Below are positions 12,779 to 64,000 of a stretch of 64,000 bases of DNA, piece by piece; position 1 is the first letter of the stretch, and each line of letters begins with the position of its first letter. This stretch comes from a virus. Both the position numbers and the translations under genes were made by a program. The notes under the pieces were generated by a model. The model was not told the DNA's origin. It saw only the letters and a list, made by a program, of their open reading frames with translations, and did no database searches. The DNA is taken from positions 1-64,000 of IMG/VR virus record IMGVR_UViG_3300025872_000053; one strand, written 5' to 3'.

Positions 12779-13100
12779 AAAAACTACATATATTAATGCA
12801 GAGCTTGATTGGGCAGAGCAACAGCTTACGTCCTGGAAAGCTTATGTGGATGCAAATCCCTTGCATGAACTAAAAGACAGAATTGAATGGAAGCCTACAG
12901 CTAAAGGAGGAATGTTACCTATGGTGATAGCCTCTATTGAAGCACAGGGTAAGTTCATTCAGGAGACAATGAAGAACTATCTAGCTCTTCTTGAGGTGGT
13001 TGATAAGCTACGTAAAATAGAAGAAGCTAAGGTGGAAGTGAGGGGAAAGGGAGAACTTAGCTCAATGGCTGAAGATTTCCTGAAAAGTAGGAGATCATGA
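12762..13100 (+). CDS. hypothetical coiled-coil protein directly upstream of terL (possible small terminase subunit)
   Basis: Position and ATGA overlap with terminase; no motif. Confidence 0.35.
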   Translation: MATAIKKTTYINAELDWAEQQLTSWKAYVDANPLHELKDRIEWKPTAKGGMLPMVIASIEAQGKFIQETMKNYLALLEVVDKLRKIEEAKVEVRGKGELSSMAEDFLKSRRS

Positions 13101-19659: not shown

Positions 19660-21213
19660 ATGGCAATTCAAACAATCCCAGGTTTAACTGGATTTACGTA
19701 TGCTAGGGTGGCTTCTATGGATAAGCGTGCTGTTGGTAAGCTTACCGATGCTAACCACCTGGAGAGCTTCCACTCAACTGAGCCAGCTGATTATGACAAA
19801 AAGATCATCAGCCTTTACACTCAGAGCTCCCTCTATAGCAATGACTTCTTGGACATGATCAACAAGTCAACCCCTTATTACATTGACAACAACAGTGATG
19901 CATGGAAATGGCAAGTTGCAGTTCCATACAAGTTCCCAAAGATCATTGATGTACCTACTTCTACAGCTGAGCTGTCTAAGCCTGGTATTGATGGTCAAGA
20001 ATTCCAATTGGTACTTGATACCAATGAGTTCTCTAAGAACGCTATCGTTTCTGTTGGTTCTCGTCAGTATGGTCCTCGTTTCTATGTTATCAAGGATCCA
20101 GTTCCTTGGAACATGGGCTTCCTTTATTCTTTCACTCTTATCAGTGACAATCCTACTGTAGATTTCGTATCTTCTACTTTCTTGCAGTATGGTATTGAAC
20201 TTGAGCTTGTAGATGCTGCTATTGGTGAGTTCGATCAAGATTTGCTTGGTCTTCCTCGTCTTGGTGAGCAAATCACTATGTTTGAATCTTTAGGTTCTGC
20301 ATATGGTTTCGAGCACAAGATCACTGAGTGGGCTGATGACAAAATGATGCGTGATGCTTCTGGTAAGCCTCTTGACATCCTTGTTTATGCTCCACAGCGT
20401 AGGAATCAACTTCCTCTTACAAGAAACGATGTTAAATGGGAACCATTCATCGAGTTCTGGATGCGTAAGTCTATGCTTGAATTGAAAGTTAAGCGTATGA
20501 TTTGGGCTAAGCCAGGCACTGTTAAAACAAATGGTAGCAAGCAAGAATTGAAGCGTACTTCTGCTGGTGTTTATCACAGAATGCGTAACAACGGTAACTT
20601 GGTACAATACAATCGTGGTGAATTCTCTGCTAACTTGATTCGTTCTGTATTTGGTGATTTGTTCTACAGAAGGGTTGATGTTAAAGATCGTAGAGTTAAA
20701 ATGTACACTAACGAAGCTGGTTTTGACGTATTCCAACAAGCTTTGAAGAATGACGCTTTGAACAGTGGTCTTACCTTCATGGCTGATTCTGGAAATCGTT
20801 ATATGCAAGGCGAAGGTCAGCACATCACTTATAACTTTGCATTCGATGCAATGGTTACTCGTGAGACTGGTCGTGTTGAGTTGATTCACTTGAAAGAGTT
20901 GGATCTTCCACAATCTAACCTTGAATTCGGTCAGAACAAGAAATCTACTCCTGTATTCATGGTATTTGATGTATCTCCAATGAGCGATGGTTCAATGGTG
21001 AACAACATCCGTGAAGTAAGAATGAAGGGTGCACCTTCAATGACTTGGGGATATATTGATGGAACTCGTCACCACTTAGGCTTTGCTAAGTCTCAGGGTA
21101 TGAGCTCTGCTAACAAGTTCCCTGGTTATGAGATTTGGATGAAAGACCGTTGCGATGTATTCATTGAGGATTTGTCTCGTACAGTTCTTATTGAGGAAAT
21201 CCCACAGTTCTAA
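19660..21213 (+). CDS. major capsid protein (517 aa)
   Basis: Gene following scaffold; followed by strong structured/terminator region typical of a highly expressed capsid gene. Confidence 0.6.
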   Translation: MAIQTIPGLTGFTYARVASMDKRAVGKLTDANHLESFHSTEPADYDKKIISLYTQSSLYSNDFLDMINKSTPYYIDNNSDAWKWQVAVPYKFPKIIDVPTSTAELSKPGIDGQEFQLVLDTNEFSKNAIVSVGSRQYGPRFYVIKDPVPWNMGFLYSFTLISDNPTVDFVSSTFLQYGIELELVDAAIGEFDQDLLGLPRLGEQITMFESLGSAYGFEHKITEWADDKMMRDASGKPLDILVYAPQRRNQLPLTRNDVKWEPFIEFWMRKSMLELKVKRMIWAKPGTVKTNGSKQELKRTSAGVYHRMRNNGNLVQYNRGEFSANLIRSVFGDLFYRRVDVKDRRVKMYTNEAGFDVFQQALKNDALNSGLTFMADSGNRYMQGEGQHITYNFAFDAMVTRETGRVELIHLKELDLPQSNLEFGQNKKSTPVFMVFDVSPMSDGSMVNNIREVRMKGAPSMTWGYIDGTRHHLGFAKSQGMSSANKFPGYEIWMKDRCDVFIEDLSRTVLIEEIPQF

Positions 21214-26967: not shown

Positions 26968-28218
26968 ATGGTAGGGAACCAGCATCTCTTAGAACAGTTG
27001 CAACAAATGCTAAACTGGAAGAAAAGTAAAAAGTTTTATGCAGAAAAACTAGGGATTACAGAAGATGAGGTGGATGCGTTATTAAAAGAAATTAGAAAGA
27101 GTGAGGTGGTAAGAAATGAGGCAGAGGTTTCACATTACATAGATCAGCTTGAAGAAGCTGTTGTAAGATTTGAGGAAGATTTAATCAAGGGTACAGGTGA
27201 GATAGTGTTCAATAGTCCAGAAGAAATTCGTTCTCTGGAGGATCTTATTGAAAAGTGTAAGATTGATACAAGTAAGTGGGAAATAACTAAATATGTCCAG
27301 AACTACTGGGGAAATGGTTCAAATCCACATTGGCAAGTAAAGGCTTGGCTTGGTAAGAAAACTGAAGGTCAGGTGTTTCAAAATGCTTTTGTAGATTTCT
27401 TGAATGAATACAAACCATGTTCTCCAGATATCGTTGCTCCTAAATACATCACTGGGAAAAGCGAAGCTTGTCTTGTGATTAACAAACAAGATTCACATCT
27501 CAACAAGTATGATGTTTATGGTGATAACAACATAAACGATAGATTTGGTGGTATACTTGAGAAGGTGGAAATAATTTTGAACCAAGCTACTCTGTCAAAT
27601 AATCTCGAAAAACTAATTTACATCATTGGATCGGATGAGTTTAATAGTGAGTTCACAAACACTACAACAAAAGGAACTCCACAAACTAACATCCTACCAT
27701 ATCATGAATCCTTCCAAAGGATCTGTGAATATGAAGTTCAAATGATCTCCCTCCTGTTACAGAATGCAAATAACGTAGATGTTGTATATGTAGCAGGAAA
27801 CCATGATGAGTATGTAGGATGGCATCTAATAACATGGTTGCAAACCTACTTTAGAAACACTGATAGGTTAACATTTGATTGTTCTCCTAGATATAGAAAA
27901 TACATAAGCTTTGGAGAAAGTGCGTTAATGTTCAATCATGGAGATGCAATAAAGCCAGCAAAGCTAGCTGCAATCTTTCCAATGGAATATAGAGATGAAT
28001 GGTCTTATCATACCAACTTCTACATATTCACAGGAGATAAACATCATGAGTTGAGTCAGGATTTTAATGGAATCAAGTTTTATCAAATTCCAGCTTTTTC
28101 TAGTGCTAAAAGTTCATGGGATGAAAAGAATGGATACACGTGTGCGAAGGCTGAAGTTACTGCATTCCTAATAGAAGAAGATAACGGAATGACAAACATA
28201 TTCAAACAATATTTATAA
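26968..28218 (+). CDS. calcineurin-like metallophosphoesterase-domain protein (416 aa)
   Basis: 'QDSHL' (DxH), 'YGDNNIND', 'VAGNHDEY' (GNHD/E), 'FNHGD', 'FTGDKHHE' in canonical order. Confidence 0.6.
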   Translation: MVGNQHLLEQLQQMLNWKKSKKFYAEKLGITEDEVDALLKEIRKSEVVRNEAEVSHYIDQLEEAVVRFEEDLIKGTGEIVFNSPEEIRSLEDLIEKCKIDTSKWEITKYVQNYWGNGSNPHWQVKAWLGKKTEGQVFQNAFVDFLNEYKPCSPDIVAPKYITGKSEACLVINKQDSHLNKYDVYGDNNINDRFGGILEKVEIILNQATLSNNLEKLIYIIGSDEFNSEFTNTTTKGTPQTNILPYHESFQRICEYEVQMISLLLQNANNVDVVYVAGNHDEYVGWHLITWLQTYFRNTDRLTFDCSPRYRKYISFGESALMFNHGDAIKPAKLAAIFPMEYRDEWSYHTNFYIFTGDKHHELSQDFNGIKFYQIPAFSSAKSSWDEKNGYTCAKAEVTAFLIEEDNGMTNIFKQYL

Positions 28219-44942: not shown

Positions 44943-47900
44943 ATGGCTATTTTTGATAACGAACTTATTGATAACGTTTCTAATAGAACTCCTGAGAGTC
45001 CTAAACAACTTCTTCCATCTCCTACAGTGAGAGATGTTGATGTTAGTCTTGGTGGTTTTGAAGTATATGGTAATCCAAGTTCTGGAAAAACAGGGTTGAG
45101 CATTGATCAACTTTCTGAGTTTTCTGGAGTTAGAACTAACCAGTCTTCTTTCAGTAGTCCTGTGCAGATGGTTCCAAGAAGTGAGCTTCTTGCAAATCAG
45201 CGTTATTCAAATTATCAAAGAGGTGTAGATCTTGAAAATGTATATGGATTAAGTCAAAGCTGGTACGATCAGCTAGGAAATGGCATCATTAAAATGGGAG
45301 GTCTTGGTGTAGGTACATTCTTACAAAGTTTTGCTACCATCCCAAACACAATGGCTGCTGTTAAGAATGGTAAACTCTCTGACCTATCTGGAGGAACAGA
45401 TGGTTATGAAGCTGCTATTGATAACTGGACAAAGAACTTAGAAGACATCTTCCCAAACTATTACACTCGTGAGGAACAAAAACATCCTTACTTAGCAATG
45501 CTTCCTTTTGCTCCAGGTTCTGCAAACTTCTGGGGTGATAAGGTTATTAAGAATCTTGGTTTTACAGCAGGTGCTATTGGTGGAGCAGTTGCTCAGGATG
45601 CAGCAATAGGTCTTGTAACAGAGGGTGTTGGAGCAGTTCCATTAATCTCTGCTCAATTAGGTAAAGCTGCTCTTTTCTTAAATAAGATATTCACTGGAAC
45701 AAATAATGTAGAGAAGGCACTTGATATAGCAAAAGCATCAGGTGTTGCTGCTGATACAATACTAGATGTTAAAAAGCTAGGTGATATTGCTGCATATACA
45801 AAAGTTGCTGATGGGTTTAGATATGGTATGGCTTTATATGGATCAGCAAGAACTGAGGCTGCTATTGAAGCTAGAGATTCCTATCGCACTGTAAGAGAAG
45901 ATCTTTTAAAACAATATAAAATTGAGAATGCTGGTGTTGATCCTACAGGAGAAGATGCTGAGCAAATCGAAGATTATGCAACCAGTGCAATGAATACCAG
46001 ATTTGGTATTAACATGGCACTACTGACAGCATCTAATGCTATTCAGTTTGGAAACTTATTTAAATCATTTACATCTGCAAACAAAGCTGTTTCAGGTCAA
46101 CTTACAAGAGAACTTGAAGATATCGGTAAGATAGGTTTGAAGGAAGGATCAAAAGATGTATTTGAAGCAAAGGTTGCTACAGGATTAAAAGATAGAATCT
46201 GGGAATCTGTTAGACCAAAGATGGCAAACATCCTAGTAGAAGGTGTATATGAAGAAGGTGGTCAATATGCTGCTGAGAAAGGTGTGTATGATTATTACAC
46301 AAGAAAGTATAAGAACCTATCTAATCCAAAGAATAAAGAAAACTGGGACACTGTAAATGAAACAATAAGTTCTACACTTACAGGATTAAAGAATCAGTTT
46401 GGTACTTCAGAAGGATTGGAGAACATGATGGTGGGTGCAATTAGTGCTCTCATCACAGGTGGTATAATGGGAAGAGTTGATGCAGCTAAAGGACAAGGAA
46501 AAGAAGCACGTTTACAAAGCTCAGTTAATCTTCTTAACCAATACGGACTCACTGGAATATTGTCTAACCAATATGACAATACATTAAGTTCTGCTGCTAT
46601 TGCTAAAGAGATGGATGAAGCTGCAAAGACTGGTGACATCTTTAAATATAAGAATCTTAAGAACGACATGTTCTTCAACTTTGTACAATCACGTATTCCT
46701 TCAGGAATGCACGATGTTACAATTGAACAGTTGAGGATGTTAAAAGATTTGGACAAAACTGAATTTGAGAAGTCATTTGGTATGGACTTCAATTCTTCTA
46801 ATAAGTCCACTGTAAATGAATATGTAGATTCACTAATCAATGAAGCTAATCAAATTAAGAAGATTAGTGATTCAATTGATTTCACATTCAAGAATCCTTT
46901 CAAGAAGATAGATAATCCAACCACTGAAGAGCAGGCTGGTGAAACAATGAACTTCATGCTGTTTAATCAGTGGAAGACAGAACTTACCTATCTTGCAGCA
47001 AAGGTTCCACATGTAAACAACAGACTTAGCTCTGTACAAGAAAGTGTTAGCAATCTTGCTCCTGCTGTTACAAATGACTTATTAGCTCAGTTGACTAACA
47101 AGGAACTTCTTAAAGATCTTAGTGCATCTTATGAGGAAAGAGCTAATCAGTTAAATAAAACTATTACAGACTTTACATCTCCTCAAGATAGAAAGAGTAT
47201 AAAGGATCAAGTTAAAGCATTGCGTACAGCTTCTGAGAGAATCAATCTTGGTTTGAAAGATGGTGTAGACAATAAGCTATTTGATTACTTACTTAATTTT
47301 GAACTTAATAATCAAGATCCAAAAGCTGATAGACAAGTTGGTCCAGAAAAGTCTGTTGACTTGTTTAATTATGGTCATGATATCAACAGGCTTAATGCTT
47401 TGAAAGATAGAGTGGTTGATTTGTATGACAACCTCACTAGTGAAGAAGGATTTAACAAGTTCATGGAACAAGGAGAAGAATTACGTTCTGGTGCTGTTCC
47501 TGAGGAAGAAACTAAAGAAGAGGTTGTTGAAGTTAAAGAAGGTCCTAAGTTTACAAACAAGGCTGGTGTTAAAGAAACATTTGAGGAAGGTAGAGAATAT
47601 GAAATCCCTGTAAGTAAGAAGGCTAGAGTTAGGAAAGTGGGTGCTGATAGATTCAAAGTAACTCTACCTGATGGTACAGCTACATTCTATCCTACAAGAG
47701 AAGAAGCAGTTGCTGCAGCTGCTGAAGTAAATGAAGAATTTGGTAACCTTCAGAAAGTGAAAGTGCTTGGTATCAATGATGATGGTACAGTGAAGGTTGA
47801 AGATATTAATGGTGATATATACAATCTTGATCCATCTAAGTTTGATGGATATGAAAAGATAATGAGTGCTCAGGAGAAGTTGATGAAGGATAAAAGTGAT

Positions 47901-50900
47901 ATTGAAGCTGAGCAGGCAGAACTTGAAAAGTCTTCTGGTTCTATAGGAACAGACACTCTTGATAACGATATTAAGAAGATTGTTATTGAGGATCCTAAGA
48001 AGGATGCTAATATATTATATACATCTGATACAGGAGCATCTGAAGATTGGGAAGCAGGTAATCTTAAGGCTTATTCTATTAGGAGAATTGAGTTTCTTAA
48101 TAACGTGAAACTTATGTCTAATAGAGGAAGACTTAAAGTAATTCTTGTCACTCCTAAACAAAAGATTCCTGGATTGGAGAATCTTCCAAGTCTTGCATTT
48201 GAAGGACTAGGTGTTACAGAAGATCAATTTAGTGATCCAACTGTAGGACTAGTTGCTGCAATATATGTAGAACAAGATGGTAATGATTACTATTATGTGA
48301 ATGTTGCTGGTAGAAGACTTGCAAAGGTTGGAGAACCAGTAGATATTGAGTCTATTGTATTTGGTACAATGCCTACAGCATCTCTTACATGGAGCAATGG
48401 AAAGCCTAGATATAGGTCTAGTCAAAAGACTGAAGCTGAGGAAATGTCTAAGAGATGGCAGGCTAAAAGAGATGAGTTGTTCAATGCTCCTGAAGGAACA
48501 TTCCAAGCTTACTCTTTTTCTGTAAGCAAAGGTATTCCTGAGGTGAATGATTACTATGATGTAAATGCTGTAGGAGACAATCTTATTCCTGAGAATATGA
48601 TTCCTACACAGGAAGGACTTATTCAAATATCAACTACAGGGTTTGTTGCTCATCAGGGTGAGAACGTATCTATCCCTGCAGGTAGACCAGCTCTTCAGTT
48701 TGGTGAAACTTTAATGTTCCTTAATAACAGGAAATTTACAAAGCAAGAGGCTGAAACAATATTTGAATTATTGAATCGCATCTCTAATGAGATAAAGGAT
48801 CAGTCTGATGCTAATGAGAAGATAAAGATTAACAAGAAGATTGCAAGATTTCTTCAGAACGTCTTATACTGGAGAAAGTCTCCTTCTACCAAAGGTAATC
48901 AACTGTACATTGATACAGACGGAATGAACTTGTTCTTTGGTGGTAAAGCTTATGACTTAACAAACCTTGAAGCTAGCAGAGATGAATTGATTGCTCAGAT
49001 TCAAGAGATGTATAATAATGTGAACAACGAAACTTTAAAAGCATTTGGAGAACCGTTCACAGAATACTATATGAAAGATGGTAAGGTTGTTACAAATGAA
49101 TGGACAAACTACCAAACATATCTTCTTTCATCATCTTTCCCTGATGGTTCAGCTAGATCTGAAAAACAAATTCCTCTTTCTACAGCTGTAGCTAAACCTA
49201 CAGAAGCTGTTCCATACAACTTCAAACAGAAGTATGCAATCCTCCAAGGATTAGATCTTCCTGTTGTATCTGTTAAGAAGGAAGAAGTTAAACCTACAGA
49301 ACCTACTCCTGGAGCTCCTAGTGCTGTAAAGGTTGGTGACTATGTGTTAGATGGTCAAACAAAGAATACATATCAATTAACTGCTGGTCCTGTTGAGTTT
49401 ACAGCAGATATTGATGCAGATGATAATATATCAGTTAGTGTTGAATCTAATGATGTAGTTAGAAATGTTGCTTCTAACAAAGAAACTATGGCTACCATCA
49501 TTGAATCTCTCAAAAAACAAGAAAGGTTTGATGCTGCTAAAGATGAAGAGCAACTTGCTCTTGATTTTATTGCATTAAGAATCACAGCAGATTTAAAGAA
49601 ACAGAAGTCTGAACAAGCTCCTACAACAGCAGCTGTATTACAGCCAGATGTTTCTCCTCTTGCACAAGCACAAGGAACAGCTAGAACAGAGCCTGTTGTT
49701 ACAGCAACTCCTGTTTCTGATATAGAAGCTAAGAAAGCTGACATAGAAAAGAGAAGACAAGAAGAATTAAAAAGTGTCGAACCATATAAAGCAGTATTTG
49801 ATGCTGTTAAAAAAGCAAATGTAGACACAGATAGTGTAGAGTCTTTAAACAAAATAAAACAAGATGCTATTGATTTAAAGATAATTGATGCATCAGCAGG
49901 TAATAGTTTTGTAAGAAGCAATGGTTCTAAATTTACATCTGAAGAGAATGTTTTTGTAATTGAACCAACTAATAAAATCAATGCTAAGTATGACGCAGAG
50001 TTAGCTGCTTTAGAAGAAAAACCTGCTGCACCTAAGAACTTTGGTGGAACCAAACCTCCTGCAAATAGTGAATATAGAAGAGTGGGTACTTTAGGAATAG
50101 ATAGAATCAGTGATGCAGAGATTGAGTTGTTTAAGATATGGGCTGCTGATAAAGTTCCTGGTATTCCTTATGAGGTGATGGAGAGCATTCTTACAACACA
50201 CGATGGTGAGAAAGCATGGGGTGCATTTGAAAATGGTGTTGCTAAGTTTTACAAGTCTGCAGCTAGAGGTACAGAATACCACGAGATATTTGAGGGTATA
50301 TGGAAAGGATTCCTTTCTCCAGAAGAAAGACAAGCTATTCTAGATGAGTTTAAATCTAAGAAGGGTGAGTTCAAAGATAGGCAGTCTGGTAAGATGATTG
50401 CATATGTAGATGCTACAGATCAGCAAGCTAAAGAAAGAATTGCTGATGACTTTGCAGATTTTAAAGTGGGTAAGCTCCCAGCTCGCTCCTTAGGAGAAAG
50501 AATAGTTAAGTTCTTCAGAAGCATTATTGAATTTGTAAAGCAGTTTGTAAACAAACCTTCTAGAAAGGAAGAATTGTTCAAAGCTATTGATACAGGTAGA
50601 TTTAAAGAAAGCGTTCTTCCAGAAAGTGTAAAGAATGACTTTTCTGAATACAGAGCTGTAGAAGGATTGAATGAAAAACAAACCAGAGAGTTTGTTGAGG
50701 ACATCACTGCTAGAGCTTTCCAAATTATATTCAGAACTAATACATCATTGTTCTCCCCAGAGAAACTTACAGCTCCTCAGATATTTGATGACATAAAAGC
50801 TCAATATGAAGAAGAGGGTAAGTTAGAGATTCTTGGAGAGAAAGCATGGAGTGAACTTGTTGGAAAGACAAAAGACTTCTTGCGTACGTTCAAGATTGAG

Positions 50901-53900
50901 TTTGATGACAATGCTCAAGTGAACATTAATGACGAGAATTATAACAACCGTCTATATGCTCCAGAGGCATTCTCTGTAGATTTCAAGAAACAATCTCCTT
51001 ATCCAGTGAAGCTTTTGTTGGGAACACTAACAGAAGCAGTTGCTACAAACCAAGAGAATTCTAATGGCTTGGAACTTCCAAAGCTAAAGAACTCAAGTAT
51101 AATAGGATTGAAGCTATTGAACTTTAGCAGAGCGTTTGTAACTGTACTTGATAAACTTTCTAACACAACAAAGGTTGGAAAGATGATTGATAAGCTAGTT
51201 GACCTAGCTAAATACGACAGTAACTATGTACGTTTGTTCACTCGTCTGAAGGGAACATTGAAAGATAATGAAGGTAATGCAATAATTGATTTCTCTAAGT
51301 TTGAACCTCAAGATTGGAGATTGTTCATTAACTTCTATCAAACTTTCACCAAACAGAAACCAGAAGCTTTGATTCAGTATTTGGATGGAGGAGAAGTGTA
51401 TACAGCTCCTGCTAATTTATTCACTGTAATTAAGCAAACTCAAAAGGGTTGGACAGAGAACATGAAGGCTCTTTCAAAAGATCCTAGTTCTTTAATCACT
51501 TACAATAGTACAGATAAGGTTTATAAAGTTAAAGATCTTAAGGATGTTCCTGTAACATCTCCTCAAGAGATGGTTGAGTTTTTGTCAAGAATAGGTATTG
51601 ATTTTCCAATTGATGTGTTCTTGAAGCTAAGAGAAAAGCAGCAGAAAGAATTTATTACAGCTGTAGGCTCACTTCATACATATCTTCAGAAGGTAGATGA
51701 GGTGATGAGTGTGAAAGGAGAAACTTTAAATGTAGGTGGTCAGTTAGTTAAACTTGCAGAACTATATGTAAGAGTGACCAATCCTTCTCATGAAAACACT
51801 TATAGAAACGTAGAGGACAAACAAACAAATGCATTTGCTGACAGTAATGCTCCATCTGTATTTGAAAGTGAGTTCAATGATGCTAATACATTAGATGAAC
51901 TTCTTGAAGCTAGACCAGAACTTAAAGATGTATTCTCTAAGAACAGCGTGGTTCTTAAGAAGGGAGGATTATTCTTTGATAAAAACGGAAAGAGAATAAA
52001 GTCAGTTAAGGTTAAATACATCCAGGGTGTAAGAGATAATGATAACAAAAAAGGAACTTCTACAGACAGACTTGGTTTAAACACCAGATCTATGTTGGAA
52101 ATTAACCAAAACCTTAATGGTGATTACTATGTTCTTATTCCTGCAGATAGCTCTACAGAGTGGATGATGAACTTGGGTAATGTTGTATCATTTGAAGATA
52201 TTGAATCTGGTGATGCATGGCCTACAATCTACAGCATATTCAGAGGTTATCTAGAAGATGAGATTGCTTTAGCAAAAGCTGATAGAAGACAACTTAATAA
52301 TGTTGGTAGCAGAGCACAAGAGCTTAGGTTCTTTAAAGATATTCTTCCTATAGGTATTCTTGGCAGAATCAATGATATGATTTTGAACAATGAGTCTAAT
52401 GAAAATATCAATACATACATTGATGAAAACATTTCTGAAATCAATGAGTCTGTTAAGAATCTGATTTCTGAACAAGCAAACGAAGTTAATCTCAATCCTT
52501 CTCAGCTAGACAGCAACTTCTTAAAGAAAGAGAAGTTAGGTAAAGATCTTTCTCCAAAGGAACTTGAGAGCGTTAAAAACTTCTTGGCTGTAAACTATAT
52601 CATAAACAACATAGAATACCACAAGGTATTGTTTGGTGATCCTTATCAGTTTGAATTAAAGAACGGTAAGCTTGATGAAACTAAACGTATCAAGTCTTTC
52701 CTTTCTCCAAGAAGATTAACTGTAGATTTCCCAGAGCTTAACTCTGCATTGAATGTAGATTATAACAAAGCAGGAAACATTGCTCTTGATCCTGAGGAAC
52801 TAGGATATCACATGTTCAAACCATTTACTAATACAGTTACTCTTAGTGATGTGAAGGTAGTTGGTAGTTTGGCTAACCTTAATCCTGCGTATGCTAAAAC
52901 TAATGAAGCAGATGCTGCTTCTTGGATTGCAGATAATACATACAGAGAGGTTAAGATTAAGAATGGTCAGTGGACTGATGAAGCAGAAGCTTGGCATCAG
53001 CATGAAATGGCTTACACTAGACTTAAGCTTCATGAGAAAGGATTGTATCAATATAAGAACAATCGTCTTAGAGAGCAAGATGCTATTGAAGCTGCTAAAC
53101 CAAGTCCTAAATATGTAACAGAGGTTCTTAAACCTATTGTATCTGGAAACAAATTTAACAAGACAAACTTTGATCTTGTACTAGATAAGTTCTCTCAGAT
53201 GCCTTTATATTATAGCATGGTTGAAGGAACTAACCTTGAGGCTCTTTACATGAAAATGTTTAAAGAGAAGATTGGTTATGTTATTATGGAAAGTGGTAGA
53301 AAGGTTGGTAAAGAAGGAACATATAAGTTGTACAATAATGATGGTACACTTAATCAAAAACCTTTCAACAATCTTGTTCAAGTTCCATGGAAAGCTTATG
53401 GTATACAAGTGGAGAATGCTTTTGAAGGAGCTAAGTCTCAGACTAGAGGTTCTCAGCTTATGAAGATTGCAACACTAGATTTGTTTGATAATGGTAAAGC
53501 TAGTCCAGAAGCAAAAGAACAATACAACAGACACAAGAAAATACAAGATGCTCTTCATAGAAATGGATACATTGAGCTATTGAAGAAGCTTGGGATCAAA
53601 GATCTTGGTGATAGTTATGAGCTTGTTGACAAAGCAAGTGTTTCACAACTTCTTGAGCGTGAGATGCTTAGAAGAGAATTGTCTGACAATGCTAAAGATA
53701 CAGTGAGACTTGATGATAAAGGACAGTTTAGAATTCCTTTTGAAGCATCTAATGCTTATGTACAAATAAGAAACATTCTATTCTCTTTGGTAGACAAGTC
53801 TCTTGTTTCTCCAAAGATGAATGGTAGCTCTCACGTACAGGTTCCTGCTACAGGATGGGAAAGTTCTGCAGAAGGAAGATCTCTTGCTATAAAGAGAGAT

Positions 53901-56852
53901 GATAAGTGGGTTAAGATTAGTAGAGGTGAGTTTGAAAAGCTTTCTGATGAAGAGAAATCAAAGGTGGCTCTTACAGACACATCATTGAAGTTCTATACAA
54001 AGGATGCTCCTTATTCTGAGATTCTTCTTCCACATTGGTTCAAAGAGAAGTTTGCTAATTCTAGATTCTCTACAGACGAGCAGCTTTTGGACTATCTCAA
54101 TAAACCAGAGAATCAATCTATCCTTAGAGGTATTGGTTTCCGTATTCCTACACAGGCTCTTAGTTCTGTAGAAGTATTCAAGGTGAAAGGTTTCCTTCCA
54201 CAATCTATGGGAGCTACAGTGGTTGTTCCTTCTGAAATTACTACCAAGGCAGGATCTGACTTTGATATAGATAAATTGAATATGTATTTAAAGAATACAT
54301 ATGTAACTAAATCAGGTGATATCAAGCAAGTTCCATTCTTTGGAATTGGTGAAGAGGGAATGAATAAAGCAAAAGAGTTTATCAAAGCTCAAGACTTGAC
54401 TGGTGATAACGGTCAAAGAACTGAAGAGGCTCTTGAGGATGATATCAATACACTAGCAGAGAGACTATACAAACAATCTCTTGAGAACGAATACTATGAA
54501 TCTTTGGAAGCTATTATTACACTTCCTGAGAACTTTGAAAGACTTATCACTCCTGTAAGTGATGGTGGTTTGAAGAAGATTGCTGACAAGCTTGATGATC
54601 TTAGAAATGAAAAAGAAGAGAACATCAAGAATAAACTTATCAGTAGAAAGTTCATGGATTCAGTGAGACATGCTTTTGTTACTGGTAAGAAGTGGGTAGG
54701 TATTGCTGCTGTAAATATTACAGGTCAATCTCTTACACAGAAATCAGAAGTGTATATTGATCCTACAAAGTTTGCAGCTGCAGGTGGAAAAGATATGTTC
54801 TTCTTAGGAGATGGTAAAGTTGCTCTTCCTCATAACACTGTAAAGATAAACGGTGAGGAAAGAATATCTATCTCTGGTGTATATGATTATACAGGTAAGA
54901 AACTTATCTCTGATGGTCTATCTGGATATGCTACATCTTTTGTGGACGTTGCTAAAGATCCATACATACTTAAGGTTATTCAAAGTGATCTTGCTGTAGG
55001 TACATTTATGTTCTTACAAAGGATTGGAGTTCCTATTGAGACAGCAGCAATGTTCATGAATCAGCCTATCATCTCTGAGTATTTAAAGATGCTTGATGAT
55101 AGAGGAACTAAAAATTTATTTACAAAAGGTGCTATATTAGATATACAAGATAGGTTTGTAACAACAGGACGTGGTATCGAATTTGCAGAAATAAGTTTAG
55201 GTACATTAGAAGATAATATTAGTGAATACTATTCTGGAAAAGAACTTAGTCCAGCAAAGAATGCAGAACAACATAAGATATTCTTTGAGTTCTTGAAGTA
55301 TGCTAAGATGGCTGAGTTTAGCTTCAAGCTTACACAGGCATCTAACTATGACACTACTAAGTTTAAGAGTGGTGATACATTATTCAAGAAACAAACAAGA
55401 ACTGATGTTGCTAGAGAGGTGAATATATTCTCTTCTGTAGATAAGATTCTTGACAACAACTTTATTGGTGAACAAGCTAATCTTTTAGACAAAGCTGCTG
55501 AATCACTTGGTGAGATTCTTAAGCTTGACAAAGATCAGTTTACAATCATAACTAACTCAGTGTTAAAGAGTTATGCTGAGAACGAATACCTATCTGCTGA
55601 TAAGTATGAAAAGATAGCAAACAAACTCAAAGCGTCATTCCTTGATTACATTATTCAAATCAAGAGCGGAATCAACACTGAGATTAAAGATCTATTGGTA
55701 GAAAAAGGAACTTCTGTAGCAGACAAACTTGCTCTTGCTAAGAAGAATCATCCTGAGGTTACTATTCTGAAGGATCTTCAGATAGAAGGTTCTGATAGAG
55801 TGGATGGTGCAAAGAGTATTAAGCTTGCTGCAAACATTAAAGAAGCTTATGACGAGAACTACTATACAGGATTAATGAGAGAGATGAGAGATAATCCTGC
55901 CACTAGAGATTTGTATTATGATATTGTGGTGTTGGCAATGTTGCAAGGAACATACCAGTCTGCCATCTCTATAAAGAACATTATTCCTATTGAAGACTTC
56001 AGTGAGAACATTGCTCCTATCATATCAACCTTGATAGCAGACACAGATGTACAAGCTTTCTCTGAAGGATGGTTCCAAAGAAACAACTGGAAGGATAATG
56101 ATGTATGGAAGACTGTTAGTCCTAGATTCTTTCCTGCAGGAGAAGATGCTCCTATAGGAGAAGATCAGTATGGTAACGATATATATCAGTATGTTTCCAC
56201 TGCATACTTCCCTAATATTACAGAAGGACTTGGAATTAAATCTGTTGATAGAAAGATTCTTGCACTAAGTGATGCATTTAATTCTTTTGATATAAATGCT
56301 GACTTTGTTCTTGTTCCTAGAGTGATTGATCAGAACGGTGAGCAAATTGATATGAAGACAGGACAAACAATCACACCATCAATGTTTGCTCAAAGAAAAG
56401 CAAAAGGTGATCTTTCTCTGAAAGAAGTGTATGGATATAAAAAGGTTAAGTTTAAAAATGGTCAACCATTAACTTATACAGAAATGTATAAGGGTGAGCC
56501 TATAACAAAATATGTGTATAAGCTCATCAACTTATATGGTGATGGAGCTCTTGCTTCTGAATACTATCTAGACTTCCAACCATCTGTTCTTGATAATGGT
56601 ACAGTGAAGATAGCTAATGAGATTCCTGATGCAGACATTCTTAATTACTTTGCTCCAAAACAAGCTGCTGAGGAATTAGCTGTTGCAAACCTTGACGCTT
56701 TAGAAGAGTTTAGTGATGAAAGAAAACAAGAAATTATAACTAACTTTGCTGCAAAACATAAGATGACAGAGGAGCAAGCTAAGGAATATATCAACCAAGC
56801 TCTTCAGAAGGATAAAGAAAACACAATAGCTAAACTTAAAGAATGTTATTAA
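44943..56852 (+). CDS. giant protein (3969 aa) with multisubunit-RNAP beta-prime-like catalytic segment; candidate virion RNA polymerase
   Basis: aa ~3066-3117 'FRIPTQALSSVEVFKVKGFLPQSMGATVVVPSEITTKAGSDFDIDKLNMYL' vs RPB1/beta-prime 'NRQPSLHKMS...YNADFDGDEMNMHVP' (R.P(S/T)...DFDxDx(M/L)NM(H/Y)); DFDID at nt 54258..54272; N-terminal P-loop-like 'GNPSSGKTG'; Gly/Ala-rich hydrophobic segment near N-term. Confidence 0.55.
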   Translation: MAIFDNELIDNVSNRTPESPKQLLPSPTVRDVDVSLGGFEVYGNPSSGKTGLSIDQLSEFSGVRTNQSSFSSPVQMVPRSELLANQRYSNYQRGVDLENVYGLSQSWYDQLGNGIIKMGGLGVGTFLQSFATIPNTMAAVKNGKLSDLSGGTDGYEAAIDNWTKNLEDIFPNYYTREEQKHPYLAMLPFAPGSANFWGDKVIKNLGFTAGAIGGAVAQDAAIGLVTEGVGAVPLISAQLGKAALFLNKIFTGTNNVEKALDIAKASGVAADTILDVKKLGDIAAYTKVADGFRYGMALYGSARTEAAIEARDSYRTVREDLLKQYKIENAGVDPTGEDAEQIEDYATSAMNTRFGINMALLTASNAIQFGNLFKSFTSANKAVSGQLTRELEDIGKIGLKEGSKDVFEAKVATGLKDRIWESVRPKMANILVEGVYEEGGQYAAEKGVYDYYTRKYKNLSNPKNKENWDTVNETISSTLTGLKNQFGTSEGLENMMVGAISALITGGIMGRVDAAKGQGKEARLQSSVNLLNQYGLTGILSNQYDNTLSSAAIAKEMDEAAKTGDIFKYKNLKNDMFFNFVQSRIPSGMHDVTIEQLRMLKDLDKTEFEKSFGMDFNSSNKSTVNEYVDSLINEANQIKKISDSIDFTFKNPFKKIDNPTTEEQAGETMNFMLFNQWKTELTYLAAKVPHVNNRLSSVQESVSNLAPAVTNDLLAQLTNKELLKDLSASYEERANQLNKTITDFTSPQDRKSIKDQVKALRTASERINLGLKDGVDNKLFDYLLNFELNNQDPKADRQVGPEKSVDLFNYGHDINRLNALKDRVVDLYDNLTSEEGFNKFMEQGEELRSGAVPEEETKEEVVEVKEGPKFTNKAGVKETFEEGREYEIPVSKKARVRKVGADRFKVTLPDGTATFYPTREEAVAAAAEVNEEFGNLQKVKVLGINDDGTVKVEDINGDIYNLDPSKFDGYEKIMSAQEKLMKDKSDIEAEQAELEKSSGSIGTDTLDNDIKKIVIEDPKKDANILYTSDTGASEDWEAGNLKAYSIRRIEFLNNVKLMSNRGRLKVILVTPKQKIPGLENLPSLAFEGLGVTEDQFSDPTVGLVAAIYVEQDGNDYYYVNVAGRRLAKVGEPVDIESIVFGTMPTASLTWSNGKPRYRSSQKTEAEEMSKRWQAKRDELFNAPEGTFQAYSFSVSKGIPEVNDYYDVNAVGDNLIPENMIPTQEGLIQISTTGFVAHQGENVSIPAGRPALQFGETLMFLNNRKFTKQEAETIFELLNRISNEIKDQSDANEKIKINKKIARFLQNVLYWRKSPSTKGNQLYIDTDGMNLFFGGKAYDLTNLEASRDELIAQIQEMYNNVNNETLKAFGEPFTEYYMKDGKVVTNEWTNYQTYLLSSSFPDGSARSEKQIPLSTAVAKPTEAVPYNFKQKYAILQGLDLPVVSVKKEEVKPTEPTPGAPSAVKVGDYVLDGQTKNTYQLTAGPVEFTADIDADDNISVSVESNDVVRNVASNKETMATIIESLKKQERFDAAKDEEQLALDFIALRITADLKKQKSEQAPTTAAVLQPDVSPLAQAQGTARTEPVVTATPVSDIEAKKADIEKRRQEELKSVEPYKAVFDAVKKANVDTDSVESLNKIKQDAIDLKIIDASAGNSFVRSNGSKFTSEENVFVIEPTNKINAKYDAELAALEEKPAAPKNFGGTKPPANSEYRRVGTLGIDRISDAEIELFKIWAADKVPGIPYEVMESILTTHDGEKAWGAFENGVAKFYKSAARGTEYHEIFEGIWKGFLSPEERQAILDEFKSKKGEFKDRQSGKMIAYVDATDQQAKERIADDFADFKVGKLPARSLGERIVKFFRSIIEFVKQFVNKPSRKEELFKAIDTGRFKESVLPESVKNDFSEYRAVEGLNEKQTREFVEDITARAFQIIFRTNTSLFSPEKLTAPQIFDDIKAQYEEEGKLEILGEKAWSELVGKTKDFLRTFKIEFDDNAQVNINDENYNNRLYAPEAFSVDFKKQSPYPVKLLLGTLTEAVATNQENSNGLELPKLKNSSIIGLKLLNFSRAFVTVLDKLSNTTKVGKMIDKLVDLAKYDSNYVRLFTRLKGTLKDNEGNAIIDFSKFEPQDWRLFINFYQTFTKQKPEALIQYLDGGEVYTAPANLFTVIKQTQKGWTENMKALSKDPSSLITYNSTDKVYKVKDLKDVPVTSPQEMVEFLSRIGIDFPIDVFLKLREKQQKEFITAVGSLHTYLQKVDEVMSVKGETLNVGGQLVKLAELYVRVTNPSHENTYRNVEDKQTNAFADSNAPSVFESEFNDANTLDELLEARPELKDVFSKNSVVLKKGGLFFDKNGKRIKSVKVKYIQGVRDNDNKKGTSTDRLGLNTRSMLEINQNLNGDYYVLIPADSSTEWMMNLGNVVSFEDIESGDAWPTIYSIFRGYLEDEIALAKADRRQLNNVGSRAQELRFFKDILPIGILGRINDMILNNESNENINTYIDENISEINESVKNLISEQANEVNLNPSQLDSNFLKKEKLGKDLSPKELESVKNFLAVNYIINNIEYHKVLFGDPYQFELKNGKLDETKRIKSFLSPRRLTVDFPELNSALNVDYNKAGNIALDPEELGYHMFKPFTNTVTLSDVKVVGSLANLNPAYAKTNEADAASWIADNTYREVKIKNGQWTDEAEAWHQHEMAYTRLKLHEKGLYQYKNNRLREQDAIEAAKPSPKYVTEVLKPIVSGNKFNKTNFDLVLDKFSQMPLYYSMVEGTNLEALYMKMFKEKIGYVIMESGRKVGKEGTYKLYNNDGTLNQKPFNNLVQVPWKAYGIQVENAFEGAKSQTRGSQLMKIATLDLFDNGKASPEAKEQYNRHKKIQDALHRNGYIELLKKLGIKDLGDSYELVDKASVSQLLEREMLRRELSDNAKDTVRLDDKGQFRIPFEASNAYVQIRNILFSLVDKSLVSPKMNGSSHVQVPATGWESSAEGRSLAIKRDDKWVKISRGEFEKLSDEEKSKVALTDTSLKFYTKDAPYSEILLPHWFKEKFANSRFSTDEQLLDYLNKPENQSILRGIGFRIPTQALSSVEVFKVKGFLPQSMGATVVVPSEITTKAGSDFDIDKLNMYLKNTYVTKSGDIKQVPFFGIGEEGMNKAKEFIKAQDLTGDNGQRTEEALEDDINTLAERLYKQSLENEYYESLEAIITLPENFERLITPVSDGGLKKIADKLDDLRNEKEENIKNKLISRKFMDSVRHAFVTGKKWVGIAAVNITGQSLTQKSEVYIDPTKFAAAGGKDMFFLGDGKVALPHNTVKINGEERISISGVYDYTGKKLISDGLSGYATSFVDVAKDPYILKVIQSDLAVGTFMFLQRIGVPIETAAMFMNQPIISEYLKMLDDRGTKNLFTKGAILDIQDRFVTTGRGIEFAEISLGTLEDNISEYYSGKELSPAKNAEQHKIFFEFLKYAKMAEFSFKLTQASNYDTTKFKSGDTLFKKQTRTDVAREVNIFSSVDKILDNNFIGEQANLLDKAAESLGEILKLDKDQFTIITNSVLKSYAENEYLSADKYEKIANKLKASFLDYIIQIKSGINTEIKDLLVEKGTSVADKLALAKKNHPEVTILKDLQIEGSDRVDGAKSIKLAANIKEAYDENYYTGLMREMRDNPATRDLYYDIVVLAMLQGTYQSAISIKNIIPIEDFSENIAPIISTLIADTDVQAFSEGWFQRNNWKDNDVWKTVSPRFFPAGEDAPIGEDQYGNDIYQYVSTAYFPNITEGLGIKSVDRKILALSDAFNSFDINADFVLVPRVIDQNGEQIDMKTGQTITPSMFAQRKAKGDLSLKEVYGYKKVKFKNGQPLTYTEMYKGEPITKYVYKLINLYGDGALASEYYLDFQPSVLDNGTVKIANEIPDADILNYFAPKQAAEELAVANLDALEEFSDERKQEIITNFAAKHKMTEEQAKEYINQALQKDKENTIAKLKECY

Positions 56853-61582: not shown

Positions 61583-61798
61583 ATGCGTATTGCTACAATT
61601 TGCCCAACGTGTGCCACACACATTAACTCTGTGTGTGTGATTTATGATGGTGAGTATCTTGCTAATTTAGATGTAGCTCCAGGAGATACCCTTGAGGATA
61701 TCCTTCTGAAGATTAACAATAGTTGTGCTTGCACTACTACTACAACTACTAGCACTAGTACTTCAACCACCACTACAACTACTACTATAGCACCATAA
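61583..61798 (+). CDS. small fiber-anchor-domain protein ending TTTTTTTIAP (71 aa)
   Basis: CxxC N-terminus + 'PGDTLEDILLKINN' like other anchor-domain paralogs; poly-Thr + IAP C-terminus. Confidence 0.5.
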   Translation: MRIATICPTCATHINSVCVIYDGEYLANLDVAPGDTLEDILLKINNSCACTTTTTTSTSTSTTTTTTTIAP

Positions 61799-61808
61799 CT
61801 TAATATAC

Positions 61809-64000
61809 ATGAACGTTACTTGTGGAGCCACCCCCTGTCCAGTTATACTGAATAGCACCTGCGTATTTTACGAAGGTGCTAATCTCATTTATACAGGCAT
61901 CAATACTAATGATAATCTTCAAACTGCTCTAGAAAAGATAGATGCTAAGTTTGCAGATGCATCAATAGGATACGTGTTTCAAAACGGTATTATTCAAACA
62001 GCACCTGGTCAACCTGTAAAGTTGGGAGGTTCTTTGAATCAAAACACCGTAATTAACAGTGCTGGTTATACATTTGAACTTACAGGTACTATTGAATCAT
62101 CTGCATTCATTACCTCTGGAGGAACATCAAGCCAGTTTGTTAAGGGAGATGGTTCTTTAGATTCTACATCCTATCAGCCTGCTGGTAACTATATCACTGG
62201 TCTCACTGGTGATGGTACAGCATCTGGTCCAGGTAACGTTCCTTTTACATTAGCTACAGTTAACTCAAACCCAGGCACTTATGGATCATCTACATTGATT
62301 CCTGTAGTGACTGTGAATGGTAAGGGATTGGTAACTAATATTACCACCACAGCTGTAAATATTCCTTCTGGCTCAATCATTTTACAAGGAGATGTAACAG
62401 GTGTTGGAACCACAGGTGTTCCTCTTACAACTACACTTGCTACAGTGAATGCCAATGTGTATGGTACAGACACTCCTCTTAAATTTGCTGTAAATGGTAA
62501 GGGATTAGTTACATCAGCTTCTCCTCTCACTGCTTTAGATATAATAGGCATTCTTGGTTATACACCAGTTCCTGATAGTAGAACTATCACGATCAATGGT
62601 GTAACCTATGATTTGTCAGCTAATAGAACTTGGTCTGTAGGAACAGTCACAAGTGTAGATCTTCAAATGCCTTCAGCATTTGCTGTATCTGGTAATCCAA
62701 TCACCTCATCTGGAACTTTAGTAGTAACTGGTACAGGTACTATAAATCAATATGTTAGAGGTGATGGTTCATTAGGAAACTTCCCATCAGGTATTGGTTC
62801 TTCAGGTACCTCAGGTGCTGGAGGTACATCTGGTACTTCTGGTCAAGGTGGTACATCTGGTACTAGCGGTGCAACAGGTGTGTCTGGTACAAGTGGTACT
62901 TCAGGTGGCACAGGTAGTAGTGGTACTTCTGGTATAGGAGGTTCCTCTGGTACAAGTGGACAAGCTGGGTCATCAGGTACATCAGGTGTTTCTGGTGGTT
63001 CTGGTAGCTCAGGATCTTCTGGATCCTCTGGAATAAGCGGAACTTCTGGAACAAGTGGTGGCACAGGAACCAGTGGAACATCTGGTAACAATGGCTCTTC
63101 TGGTACTTCTGGAGGAACAGGAACTAGTGGTACCTCAGGTGACTCTGGTACATCAGGCTTATCTGGTACTAGCGGAACATCAGGTGGAACTGGTACATCA
63201 GGTACAAGCGGAGGTACAGGAACCTCAGGTACTAGTGGAGCTACTGGCTCTAGTGGTACATCAGGTAATAGTGGAACTTCTGGAGACTCTGGTACAAGTG
63301 GAAGTTCTGGTGTATCTGGAACTAGCGGTGATAGTGGGTCTAGTGGTACATCTGGTGCAACAGGTTCTTCTGGAACAAGTGGTATTTCTGGTACTAGTGG
63401 CACGTCTGGTGCTGTTGGTAGCAGTGGTACATCTGGTGAAAGTGGAACTAGTGGTAACAGTGGGACAAGTGGCACAAGTGGTATAAATGGAACTTCTGGT
63501 AATAACGGCACTAGTGGTACTAGTGGAGGTACAGGTACAAGTGGTACTTCTGGAGACAGTGGTTCATCAGGTGTGAATGGAACTAGTGGTACGTCAGGAG
63601 ATAGTGGTAGCTCTGGCACCAGTGGGTCTTCTGGACTTTCTGGTACTAGTGGTCAATCCTCTACAAGCGGTACAAGTGGAAACAGTGGTTCTTCTGGCAC
63701 TTCTGGTTTGTCAGGTAGTTCTGGAACAGCAGGTGAATCTGGTACAAGTGGTAATAATGGCTCCTCTGGAAACAGTGGTACGTCAGGTACAAGTGGTTTG
63801 AATGGTGATGATGGTACATCTGGTACCAGTGGTATTAGTGGTACATCAGGTACCAATGGACAAAATGGTACAAGCGGTACATCTGGCTTGTCAGGTACAA
63901 GTGGAAATAACGGTAGCTCTGGTTCTTCTGGAAACAGTGGAACAAGTGGCACCTCAGGTATAAATGGTGATGATGGAACTTCAGGAACTTCTGGCGTTAG
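61809..64000 (+). CDS. tail fiber with phage-tail-fibre repeats and long Pro-free collagen-like (Gly-X-Y) domain; 3' partial (runs off window), absent from ORF track
   Basis: Open frame from ATG 61809 to window end; N-term anchor domain; two 'T(L)ATVN..GTY....VTVNGKGLVT' repeats (lambda Stf-type 'AGTYTKVTVNAKGLVT'); from ~62791 continuous GTS-GTS-GxG triplets. Confidence 0.7.
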   Translation, partial: MNVTCGATPCPVILNSTCVFYEGANLIYTGINTNDNLQTALEKIDAKFADASIGYVFQNGIIQTAPGQPVKLGGSLNQNTVINSAGYTFELTGTIESSAFITSGGTSSQFVKGDGSLDSTSYQPAGNYITGLTGDGTASGPGNVPFTLATVNSNPGTYGSSTLIPVVTVNGKGLVTNITTTAVNIPSGSIILQGDVTGVGTTGVPLTTTLATVNANVYGTDTPLKFAVNGKGLVTSASPLTALDIIGILGYTPVPDSRTITINGVTYDLSANRTWSVGTVTSVDLQMPSAFAVSGNPITSSGTLVVTGTGTINQYVRGDGSLGNFPSGIGSSGTSGAGGTSGTSGQGGTSGTSGATGVSGTSGTSGGTGSSGTSGIGGSSGTSGQAGSSGTSGVSGGSGSSGSSGSSGISGTSGTSGGTGTSGTSGNNGSSGTSGGTGTSGTSGDSGTSGLSGTSGTSGGTGTSGTSGGTGTSGTSGATGSSGTSGNSGTSGDSGTSGSSGVSGTSGDSGSSGTSGATGSSGTSGISGTSGTSGAVGSSGTSGESGTSGNSGTSGTSGINGTSGNNGTSGTSGGTGTSGTSGDSGSSGVNGTSGTSGDSGSSGTSGSSGLSGTSGQSSTSGTSGNSGSSGTSGLSGSSGTAGESGTSGNNGSSGNSGTSGTSGLNGDDGTSGTSGISGTSGTNGQNGTSGTSGLSGTSGNNGSSGSSGNSGTSGTSGINGDDGTSGTSGV
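62791..64000 (+). repeat. nucleotide-level triplet/nonamer repeat encoding (Gly-Thr-Ser)n collagen-like tract
   Basis: ggtacWtcWggt-type units repeated for >1.2 kb; every third residue Gly. Confidence 0.8.

Follow-up and report, generated by a model that had tools for sequence, protein, structure and literature searches.

What kind of protein is encoded by a viral reading frame that stays open to the last nucleotide of the stretch analysed, and in which glycine recurs at nearly every third residue? The locus that raises this question lies at the end of a 64,000-nucleotide stretch of viral DNA (IMG/VR virus record IMGVR_UViG_3300025872_000053, positions 1 to 64,000; here denoted the window), where the plus-strand frame from 61809 to 64000 is free of stops over 730 codons (2,192 nt) and its translation starts with MNVTCGATPCP. 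The gene is missing from the list of open reading frames (ORFs) because that list leaves out frames that run off the window end; its entries for this region are short ORFs in other frames. We conclude that the window ends inside a genuine fibre gene of 2,850 residues, the last gene of the late (structural) operon, and holds its first quarter. We propose that the product is a very long homotrimeric tail fibre or similar virion appendage, and we give this reading, with the modules and the mechanism described below taken as a whole, a probability of about 0.7.

The window ends inside a 2,850-residue fibre gene

The full gene was sought in public assemblies by means of the complete 71-aa ORF directly upstream of it (61583-61798), and 13 contigs were found; independent contigs with the same sequence came from three data sources (ENA, JGI and Logan). 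One of these, a 46-kb ENA contig (L001), is 100% identical to the window across the 10,226 nt upstream of the fibre gene and identical across the 2.2 kb of the fibre gene bar one 27-nt indel. L001 carries the gene to its stop and encodes 2,849 aa (L001:10227-18776), or 2,858 aa if the 9-aa insertion of the window is counted. The first-pass annotation of the window had claimed a fibre gene missed by the ORF list and had named extension to a stop as the check; the open frame and the stop in L001 bear it out. The six other contigs that enter the gene (L002-L007) all end inside its triplet tract, at fibre residues 906-1448, and eight contigs from the three data sources agree base for base except for synonymous single-nucleotide polymorphisms (SNPs) and indels of multiples of 9 nt.

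The protein consists of four modules: an N-terminal module (aa 1-329), the triplet tract, a series of 17-residue repeats and a Peptidase_S74 C-terminus. Gly, Ser and Thr together make up about 63% of its residues. In one antisense frame the tract gives TPEVPEVPSSPF..., with just 2 stops in 1.2 kb. The antisense ORFs arise because this strand is the mirror image of a (GGN-ACN-TCN/AGY)n coding strand, and they had rightly been set aside as artefacts at first pass. The features concerned are as follows.

61809..64000, plus strand: 5' part of the fibre gene, 730 codons, known from the translation and from L001 and other contigs.
62796..64000, plus strand: opening part of the proline-free Gly-X-Y tract, which counts 133 triplets up to the window end and 499 (aa 330-1827) in the full gene.
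62820..62849, plus strand: in-frame 27-nt indel, 9 aa GGTSGTSGQ, present in the window and L002-L007 and absent from L001, its placement ambiguous within the repeat.
62843..63619, minus strand: antisense ORF of 258 aa, a mirror artefact of the triplet periodicity and not a gene.

The Gly-X-Y tract keeps a single register and contains no proline

In the window, the tract starts at residue 330 (nt 62796) and runs for 133 triplets in a single register, 132 of them headed by Gly and one by Ser (aa 618), with no Pro. The full tract of L001 comprises 499 triplets in one register without any shift; the Gly position is occupied by Gly in 456 triplets, by Ser in 29 and by Ala in 14, and the leading 93 triplets are perfect. 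Position X is Thr in 52%, Ser in 21% and Val in 9% of the triplets, whereas position Y is Ser in 84%, and the 1,498 aa include no Pro and 18 charged residues. Pfam Collagen (PF01391) matches the tract in four stretches, with E=3.8e-47 and 158.3 bits versus a cut-off of 27.2. The proline-free tract with Gly at every third residue, which had been put at more than 400 aa, thus reaches about 1,500 aa in the full gene, with Ser or Ala in place of Gly at 43 sites, and the unusually long shaft expected from it still stands as a prediction. The nonapeptide super-repeat noted at the same time is real but degenerate, and its phase drifts: a triplet other than GTS or GSS is followed by another such triplet at a lag of three triplets with P=0.67, versus a base rate of 0.39 and 0.13 at a lag of one.

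Characterised bacterial and prophage collagens have a Pro-rich X position, and Thr at Y or charge pairs (PMC3368898, PMC8968730), with published norms of 19-31% for Pro at X and of 32-48% for Thr at Y (PMC8968730). The stabilising residues typical of such collagens, proline or hydroxyproline, or charge pairs as in Scl2, were not found in the tract. We also observed that in its distal half (L001:12720-15700, aa ~830-1800) Gly is replaced by Ser or Ala in pairs nine residues apart. The pairs recur in blocks of 27-36 residues that start with GSSGSSG, forming regular weak points of the putative helix.

The C-terminal region carries 17-residue repeats and a Peptidase_S74 domain

Beyond the window, L001 encodes about 48 copies of a 17-residue repeat, NTAVGxxALxxNTTGxx (aa ~1881-2700), rich in N-T-T and N-T-S motifs; a direct count gives a period of 17 residues in 29 of 43 segments. 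A Peptidase_S74 domain follows at aa 2731-2849 (PF13884, E=1.7e-11, 44.6 bits versus a cut-off of 22, profile positions 1-57 of 58). Its profile position 1 falls on Ser2731 of the motif S2731-D-I-R-D-K2736, with the Lys five residues after the Ser. The significance of this Ser...Lys motif rests on work with endosialidases. K1F endosialidase and the L-shaped fibre pb1 of T5 (PMC4690869, PMC3357383) likewise end in PF13884 with the Ser...Lys at its first residue, but have no collagen shaft. As in these S74 fibres, trimerisation, folding of the preceding beta-structure and self-cleavage would be expected, and are predicted here.

The repeat-plus-S74 region matches PHROG 4636, 'tail spike protein', with E=4.1e-136. 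Using a 358-aa query, tblastn detected SPO1 gp2.52, the CampHawk tailspike, the P-SSM2 tail spike and the 'FhaB-like adhesion protein' of Methylophilales phage Venkman at 35-37% identity over 92% of the query, corresponding to the last 330 residues of the fibre; these proteins belong to other phage lineages and have other N-terminal parts. PDB sequence searches with the 1,024-aa C-terminal region and with the S74 domain alone returned nothing significant, and thereby no solved fold for the 17-residue repeat. YadA-like head or Hep_Hag repeats (~14 residues) were considered and rejected, as the likeness is one by eye only, the period is 17 and there is no Pfam match at E<=0.1.

The fibre gene is linked to genes for glycan modification

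Downstream of the fibre gene, L001 encodes a 220-aa ORF (PHROG 1574, with a weak signal of glycosyltransferase (GT) family GT2) and then a 521-aa protein with Glycos_transf_1 and Methyltransf_21 domains. The syntenic locus L021 has a 219-aa ORF (75% identical), a GT1, an FkbM methyltransferase, a sulfotransferase and a 315-aa ORF. The sulfotransferase gene (L021:11852-12670, PF13469, E=2.9e-18) belongs to the set conserved downstream of the orthologous fibre gene; it would be unusual for a phage fibre to bear sulfated glycans.

To follow this linkage in both directions, we sampled six unrelated G-T-S collagen genes on long contigs and also ran the reverse search in IMG/VR. Forward sampling found GT neighbours at three of the six loci: L010 (GT1+FkbM and GT1+GT9), L012 (orthologous GTs) and L013 (a sugar-nucleotide/GT cluster). 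In L013 (4768-17576), the G-T-S collagen-like gene (P0126) lies inside a cluster of UDP-GlcNAc 2-epimerase-like, DegT aminotransferase, acetyltransferase, two GT2 and GT1 genes. Three relatives that share the same backbone and N-terminal module and have no collagen tract showed no GT within 10 kb. The L001 GT has no BLAST similarity to the GTs of L010 and L012, indicating independent GT types, and the reverse test started from these two. Relatives of the L001 GT have a Pro-poor, Ser/Thr-rich G-X-Y tract upstream on the same strand at six of nine loci. The remaining three are only apparent negatives, with upstream sequence that is cut short: L025 begins inside the 17-residue-repeat/S74 end of a fibre gene, L019 has just about 1.5 kb upstream, and the visible 3,108 aa of the L022 fibre ORF, open at its 5' end, are all 17-residue repeat. 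Close relatives of the L010 GT are accompanied by such tracts downstream in 7 of 7 cases, whereas distant matches sharing only the methyltransferase domain have a tract in 1 of 35. The enrichment in close (13/16) versus distant (1/35) relatives corresponds to a Fisher p of about 1.5e-8, or about 1e-7 when collapsed to lineages. GT-linked fibre genes without the 17-residue repeats still have a G-[TS]-S tract.

A GT adjoining a collagen-like gene, the arrangement of BclA3/SgtA, was found in L001, L010, L012, L013 and L020-L034. B. anthracis BclA and C. difficile BclA3/SgtA resemble the present case in combining a collagen-like filament with a GT gene beside it, and SgtA, encoded by the gene adjoining bclA3, adds O-GlcNAc to Thr, as well as to Ser, of the collagen repeats (PMC7157674); for the phage fibre glycosylation is inferred. 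BclA-type proteins differ in that they come from bacterial spores, are built of GPT repeats with Pro at X and Thr at Y, and have different terminal domains. Among viruses, A064R of chlorovirus PBCV-1 is a GT-methyltransferase. Mycobacteriophages are reported to carry glycans on capsid and tail tube (Freeman et al. 2023, as cited in PMC12619734). Both have in common with the present phage virus-encoded GT (and methyltransferase) genes and decoration of a structural protein, which here would be the shaft; the targets, enzymes and viruses differ.

The linkage to phage sugar-modifying genes is the new point, and it suggests glycosylated shafts. No phage GT linked to a collagen-like fibre was found reported in the searchable literature. 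The first-pass proposal of a Thr/Ser-stabilised or glycosylated shaft thus gains comparative support for glycosylation from the linked GT genes, short of proof.

The strongest alternative is that the GT, methyltransferase and sulfotransferase modify phage DNA, host glycans, another virion protein or the N-x-T sequons of the 17-residue repeats, leaving the shaft unglycosylated. This is a real possibility, if not the one we favour, as the best-known roles of phage GTs are DNA glucosylation and serotype conversion (PMC12619734, PMC10202952), the repeats offer many N-T-T/N-T-S motifs, and three of seven forward-sampled collagen loci have no GT within 8 kb. It has to contend with GT genes that adjoin the fibre gene on the same strand of the late operon, and with the same linkage appearing in two unrelated GT types. 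A target in the repeats fits poorly with the G-[TS]-S tract being kept in GT-linked genes that lack them; the collagen-free relatives are also free of GTs, and the SgtA gene beside bclA3 sets a precedent for O-GlcNAcylation of Thr/Ser in collagen repeats (PMC7157674).

The triplet rule appears to be kept by selection on the protein

Exact DNA repeats of 24 nt or more are absent from the 4.5-kb tract, and Tandem Repeats Finder reported only short arrays, 59-88% matched. All four Gly codons are in use, and the Ser codons of position Y are divided between two unconnected codon families (AGY 194, TCN 223). Contigs differ from one another only by synonymous SNPs and by indels, 27, 9 and 9+9 nt in size, whose lengths are divisible by nine and therefore keep the triplet register. 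The close relative P0001, 94% identical in the N-terminal module, conserves the Gly position of the tract at 94%, position Y at 75% and position X at 49%, with 0 gaps in 204 residues. The L021 orthologue (78% at the N-terminus, 44% in the C-terminal region) has a tract of about 690 aa in two pieces and more 17-residue repeats, indicating that shaft length is plastic. Together these data point to selection on the protein, not to recent DNA amplification, as what keeps the triplet rule. The pattern shows that a small residue is strictly required at every third position while the exposed positions vary freely; it agrees with a helix of collagen type and speaks against a linker that is simply disordered, short of proof of a triple helix.

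The first-pass view of the DNA repeat as a hotspot of recombination and length variation was overstated, given that there is no exact repeat of 24 nt or more and that the arrays are imperfect, but in-frame length variants do exist between samples. We also noticed that L002 carries synonymous SNPs at four consecutive third positions, and that six assemblies (L002-L007) break inside the tract despite the lack of such an exact repeat. The SNPs and 9-nt-multiple indels between contigs suggest population microdiversity in the shaft.

These comparisons bear on a second alternative, a flexible, disordered, mucin-like Ser/Thr spacer, possibly O-glycosylated, that tethers a distal binding domain. Zero Pro, almost no charge, the share of Gly, Ser and Thr in the whole protein (about 63%), linked glycan-modifying genes and fast-evolving X-position residues would all suit such a spacer. 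However, a spacer has no need of a small residue at every third position, and here one register is held over 499 triplets, Gly is replaced only by Ser or Ala, all indels are 9-nt multiples, and conservation of Gly (94%) exceeds that of X (49%). The tract moreover sits between modules that in known fibres (S74) are obligate trimers. We therefore regard a disordered spacer as unlikely.

The N-terminal module contains a duplicated repeat that differs from that of lambda Stf

Three features were distinguished within the N-terminal module.

61809..61958, plus strand: N-terminal Cys-containing motif, aa 1-50, ...CPVILNSTCVFYEGANL...LQTALEKIDAKF, found at the N-terminus of 600+ metagenomic fibre proteins.
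62184..62345, plus strand: fibre repeat unit 1, aa 126-179, GNYITGLTGDGTASGPG..TLATVN..GTYGS..VTVNGKGLVT.
62373..62522, plus strand: fibre repeat unit 2, aa 189-238, 49% identical to unit 1.

The Cys-containing motif is presumed to be the virion-attachment end. The module has 638 homologues, mostly with non-collagen shafts, and can thus be seen as an exchangeable proximal module. Aligned over 57 aa, the two repeat units share 49% identity, with a pairwise E of 1e-7. The unit recurs in metagenomic fibre proteins such as P0094 and P0105, with two copies in each, and in a small number of phages in culture (Limnohabitans DC31, Pelagibacter HTVC008M, Synechococcus phages and the Acinetobacter ME3 tail fibre). 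The two units recognised at first pass are therefore a real duplication, but the likeness to lambda Stf and T-even fibres that had been ascribed to them did not hold.

The lambda Stf-type label is rejected on three counts. The 327-aa N-terminal part has no Pfam match to Phage_fiber_2 or Phage_fiber even at E<=10, that is, to PF03406 or PF03335, which lambda orf-401 and orf-314 themselves match. BLASTP of the fibre against these two lambda Stf halves (stf record L009) found nothing, and the lambda PF03406 repeat (...TTRKGIVQLSSATNSTSETLAATPKAVK...) differs by eye from the fibre repeat unit. PHROG and Pfam searches with the module matched no family, and phmmer against PDB found nothing. An AlphaFold2 monomer model of the module reached a predicted local distance difference test (pLDDT) score of 75, with values >85 at residues ~150-250, and a predicted TM-score (pTM) of 0.31. 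Foldseek comparison of this model with PDB yielded nothing at E<=0.001; T4 gp34 appeared at E=1.5-5.7 with TM<0.1, so that no link to the T-even fibres (T4 gp34/gp37) was found, a weak negative given the moderate model. Against BFVD, Foldseek matched uncultured-phage fibre proteins, S74-containing proteins and the ME3 tail fibre.

A model for a very long trimeric fibre

The proposed mechanism builds on established knowledge of S74-bearing fibres and of the way collagen folds. The S74 domain would trimerise, template the folding of the 17-residue repeats and set the register, and the triple helix, nucleated by it, would zipper from the C- to the N-terminus. Self-cleavage at Ser2731 would then remove 119 aa. 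The N-terminal module would dock on the virion, and the distal repeat domain would bind the host. A shaft of 1,498 residues at 0.286 nm each would measure about 430 nm, and its Gly→Ser/Ala sites would probably act as hinges that give a larger capture radius in dilute water. The adjacent GT/FkbM-methyltransferase, with the sulfotransferase in relatives, probably O-glycosylates Thr and Ser of the shaft; the O-glycans would stabilise, stiffen or shield the Pro-free helix, making up for the missing Pro.

Several points weigh against this reading. That a Pro-free (G-T-S)n forms a triple helix is a prediction from sequence, collagen peptide host-guest data assign only moderate propensity to Thr at X and Ser at Y, and the tract lacks the stabilising charge pairs of other bacterial collagens. 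The fold of the 17-residue repeat and the location on the virion (tail, neck or head) are putative, and the N-terminal model is of only moderate quality, with no solved homologue. The sequence past nt 64000 comes from one short-read contig, the six others breaking inside the tract, so that the length given is that of a single assembly. As to the GT genes, the linkage is comparative, many of the GT-positive loci are related by descent, and three of seven forward-sampled loci have no GT nearby.

A non-tail appendage, for example a whisker or a fibre on the head or neck, is a still less likely alternative than the disordered spacer. No baseplate or adaptor interaction was identified, and in L011 a G-T-S tract is fused to a head-completion protein, but the present gene closes the structural operon, following giant tail-region ORFs; its C-terminal module has its homologues among annotated tail spikes and fibres, and the BFVD matches of its N-terminal module are tail-fibre and S74 proteins. 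Another Gly-dependent fold is quite improbable. Polyglycine-II (PGII) or polyproline-II bundles, as in some phage adhesin tips or snow-flea antifreeze protein, would share Gly at every third residue, small polar side chains and the lack of Pro, but known PGII bundles are short helices joined by turns. The tract starts with 93 unbroken triplets, has no recurring turn motifs and matches Pfam Collagen strongly, and relatives place the same tracts between globular inserts, like modular collagen-like fibres. The chance of an assembly artefact or of non-coding low-complexity DNA is negligible: although the tract is where six contigs stop, the eight contigs compared across three data sources differ by no more than synonymous SNPs and 9-nt-multiple indels, the 8.5-kb ORF is flanked by homologous protein domains, and no long exact repeat is there to mislead an assembler.

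Proline-free triplet tracts are common in metagenomic phage proteins

To place the proposed collagen-like fibre among known proteins, we searched with its tract. Among 8,000 proteins scored, 2,077 matched; 69 of the best 119 matches have zero Pro and 95 have <1%. A word-indexed protein search with the tract listed only proteins of up to 702 aa and missed even the parent protein, and an exhaustive search was used for tract length. With cultured phages as the target, tblastn of the tract gave no match, an outcome of the low-complexity filter. The latter gave 51,356 collagen-type proteins at E<=1e-3, with <1% Pro in 21 of the top 150, including P0240, which has 1,485 aa of G-x-Q triplets. P0340, a 1,716-aa relative, has the same N-terminus, G-T/S-S tracts and an S74 end, and L029-L033 contain ORFs of at least 2,013-2,353 aa with 1,596-2,016 aa of Pro-free triplets. 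These data indicate that neither composition nor length is unique, and that the fibre belongs to an under-described class common in metagenomic phage proteins. The composition, called unusual at first pass, is so by comparison with characterised collagens, but not within the databases. Literature searches for Gly-Thr-Ser collagen, proline-free phage collagen and crAss-like collagen fibres found no direct precedent.

The ORFs at L029:15891-21971, L032:15887-21925 and L033:15899-22957 run off the locus and have tracts longer than that of the fibre studied here; they stand directly after a GT1+FkbM / FkbM / GT1+GT9 block. In L011 (8001-9734), the G-T-S collagen tract fused to the head-completion protein (Phage_HCP) lies in a siphovirus-type head module, indicating that the same type of tract is also used in non-tail virion proteins.

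The closest characterised counterparts are the prophage proteins EPclA-D of E. coli O157:H7 (PMC3368898). Like the present fibre, these are phage tail-fibre proteins with a (Gly-X-Y)n stretch between non-collagenous domains, trimeric in them and predicted to be so here, and length differences are multiples of three residues. They are unlike it in having Pro at about half of the X positions, frequent charges, a longest Col domain of 322 aa and the lambda-type domains PfN, Pf2 and PfC. The fibre described here has no Pro, almost no charge, Thr/Ser at X and Y, about 1,500 aa of triplets, no lambda-type domains and an S74 C-terminus.

Phage context and neighbouring genes

The window belongs to a tailed phage, with the large terminase subunit TerL (13097-15133), portal (15133-17718), major head protein (19660-21213) and further virion proteins, all on the plus strand. 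Giant plus-strand ORFs of 1,705, 1,787, 860, 3,969 and 1,548 aa follow the head genes, and the fibre gene comes last. The best TerL matches are Leptolyngbya phage Lbo-JY46 (41%), Cellulophaga phages phi17:2 and phi4:1 (32%) and crAss-like phages (26-30%), consistent with a phage distantly related to Cellulophaga and crAss-like phages. These TerL relatives make a host among the Bacteroidota likely. As a test for a circular genome, the DNA downstream in L001 was compared with the window start, and no match was found.

The ORF upstream of the fibre gene is a partial paralogue of it.

61583..61798, plus strand: 71-aa ORF upstream of the fibre gene, with a poly-Thr/Ser tail CACTTTTTTSTSTSTTTTTTTIAP and an N-terminus paralogous to the fibre.

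Its N-terminal 46 aa are 37% identical to the fibre (E=1e-5), and no further copies of the N-terminal motif were found beyond these two. One possibility is a minimal protein that serves only as an anchor, another is a further substrate for glycosylation.

Other observations concern the rest of the window. The 3,969-aa ORF (44943-56852, plus strand) has no Pfam or PHROG match, and a counterpart of 4,245-4,333 aa occupies the same position in the relatives L016-L018. A search of the giant ORFs for the crAss-type DxDGD RNA-polymerase motif brought up nothing convincing. Amid the virion structural genes, 26968-28218 on the plus strand encodes an SbcD-like DNA repair exonuclease (PHROG 704, E=2.4e-47). 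At ~10400-11000 minus-strand genes give way to plus-strand genes and the sign of the GC skew reverses as well; the site could be a divergent promoter region or a boundary connected with replication.

Implications for phage fibres

Collagen-like phage fibres with self-cleaving chaperone domains are already known, and the parts of this fibre are of known kinds; what sets it apart as a variant is its compositional class, together with the conserved coupling of that class to genes for glycan modification. To our knowledge, every characterised prokaryotic collagen depends on Pro or charge networks. A G-T-S helix of 1,500 residues, uncharged and free of Pro, would challenge current rules of triple-helix stability, and at about 0.43 um it would rank among the longest phage fibres known. 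The coupling to glycan genes offers a testable hypothesis of phage-encoded O-glycosylation of the shaft, with candidate enzymes and substrates for recombinant glycosylated, hydroxyproline-free collagens. In practice, fibre genes of this kind cause short-read assemblies to break and, at contig ends, escape ORF lists, so that host-recognition genes of abundant freshwater phages are systematically under-annotated.

A wider and tentative proposal, which we think somewhat more apt to fail than to stand, is that aquatic phages harbour a widespread and so far undescribed class of 'glyco-collagens', Pro-free (Gly-Thr/Ser-Ser)n triple helices of hundreds to >2,000 residues (0.1-0.6 um) that depend, for stability as for surface properties, on glycans supplied by a dedicated phage GT1/FkbM-methyltransferase/sulfotransferase cluster beside the fibre gene. 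If so, methylated and sulfated O-glycans would replace proline and hydroxyproline as the helix-stabilising principle.

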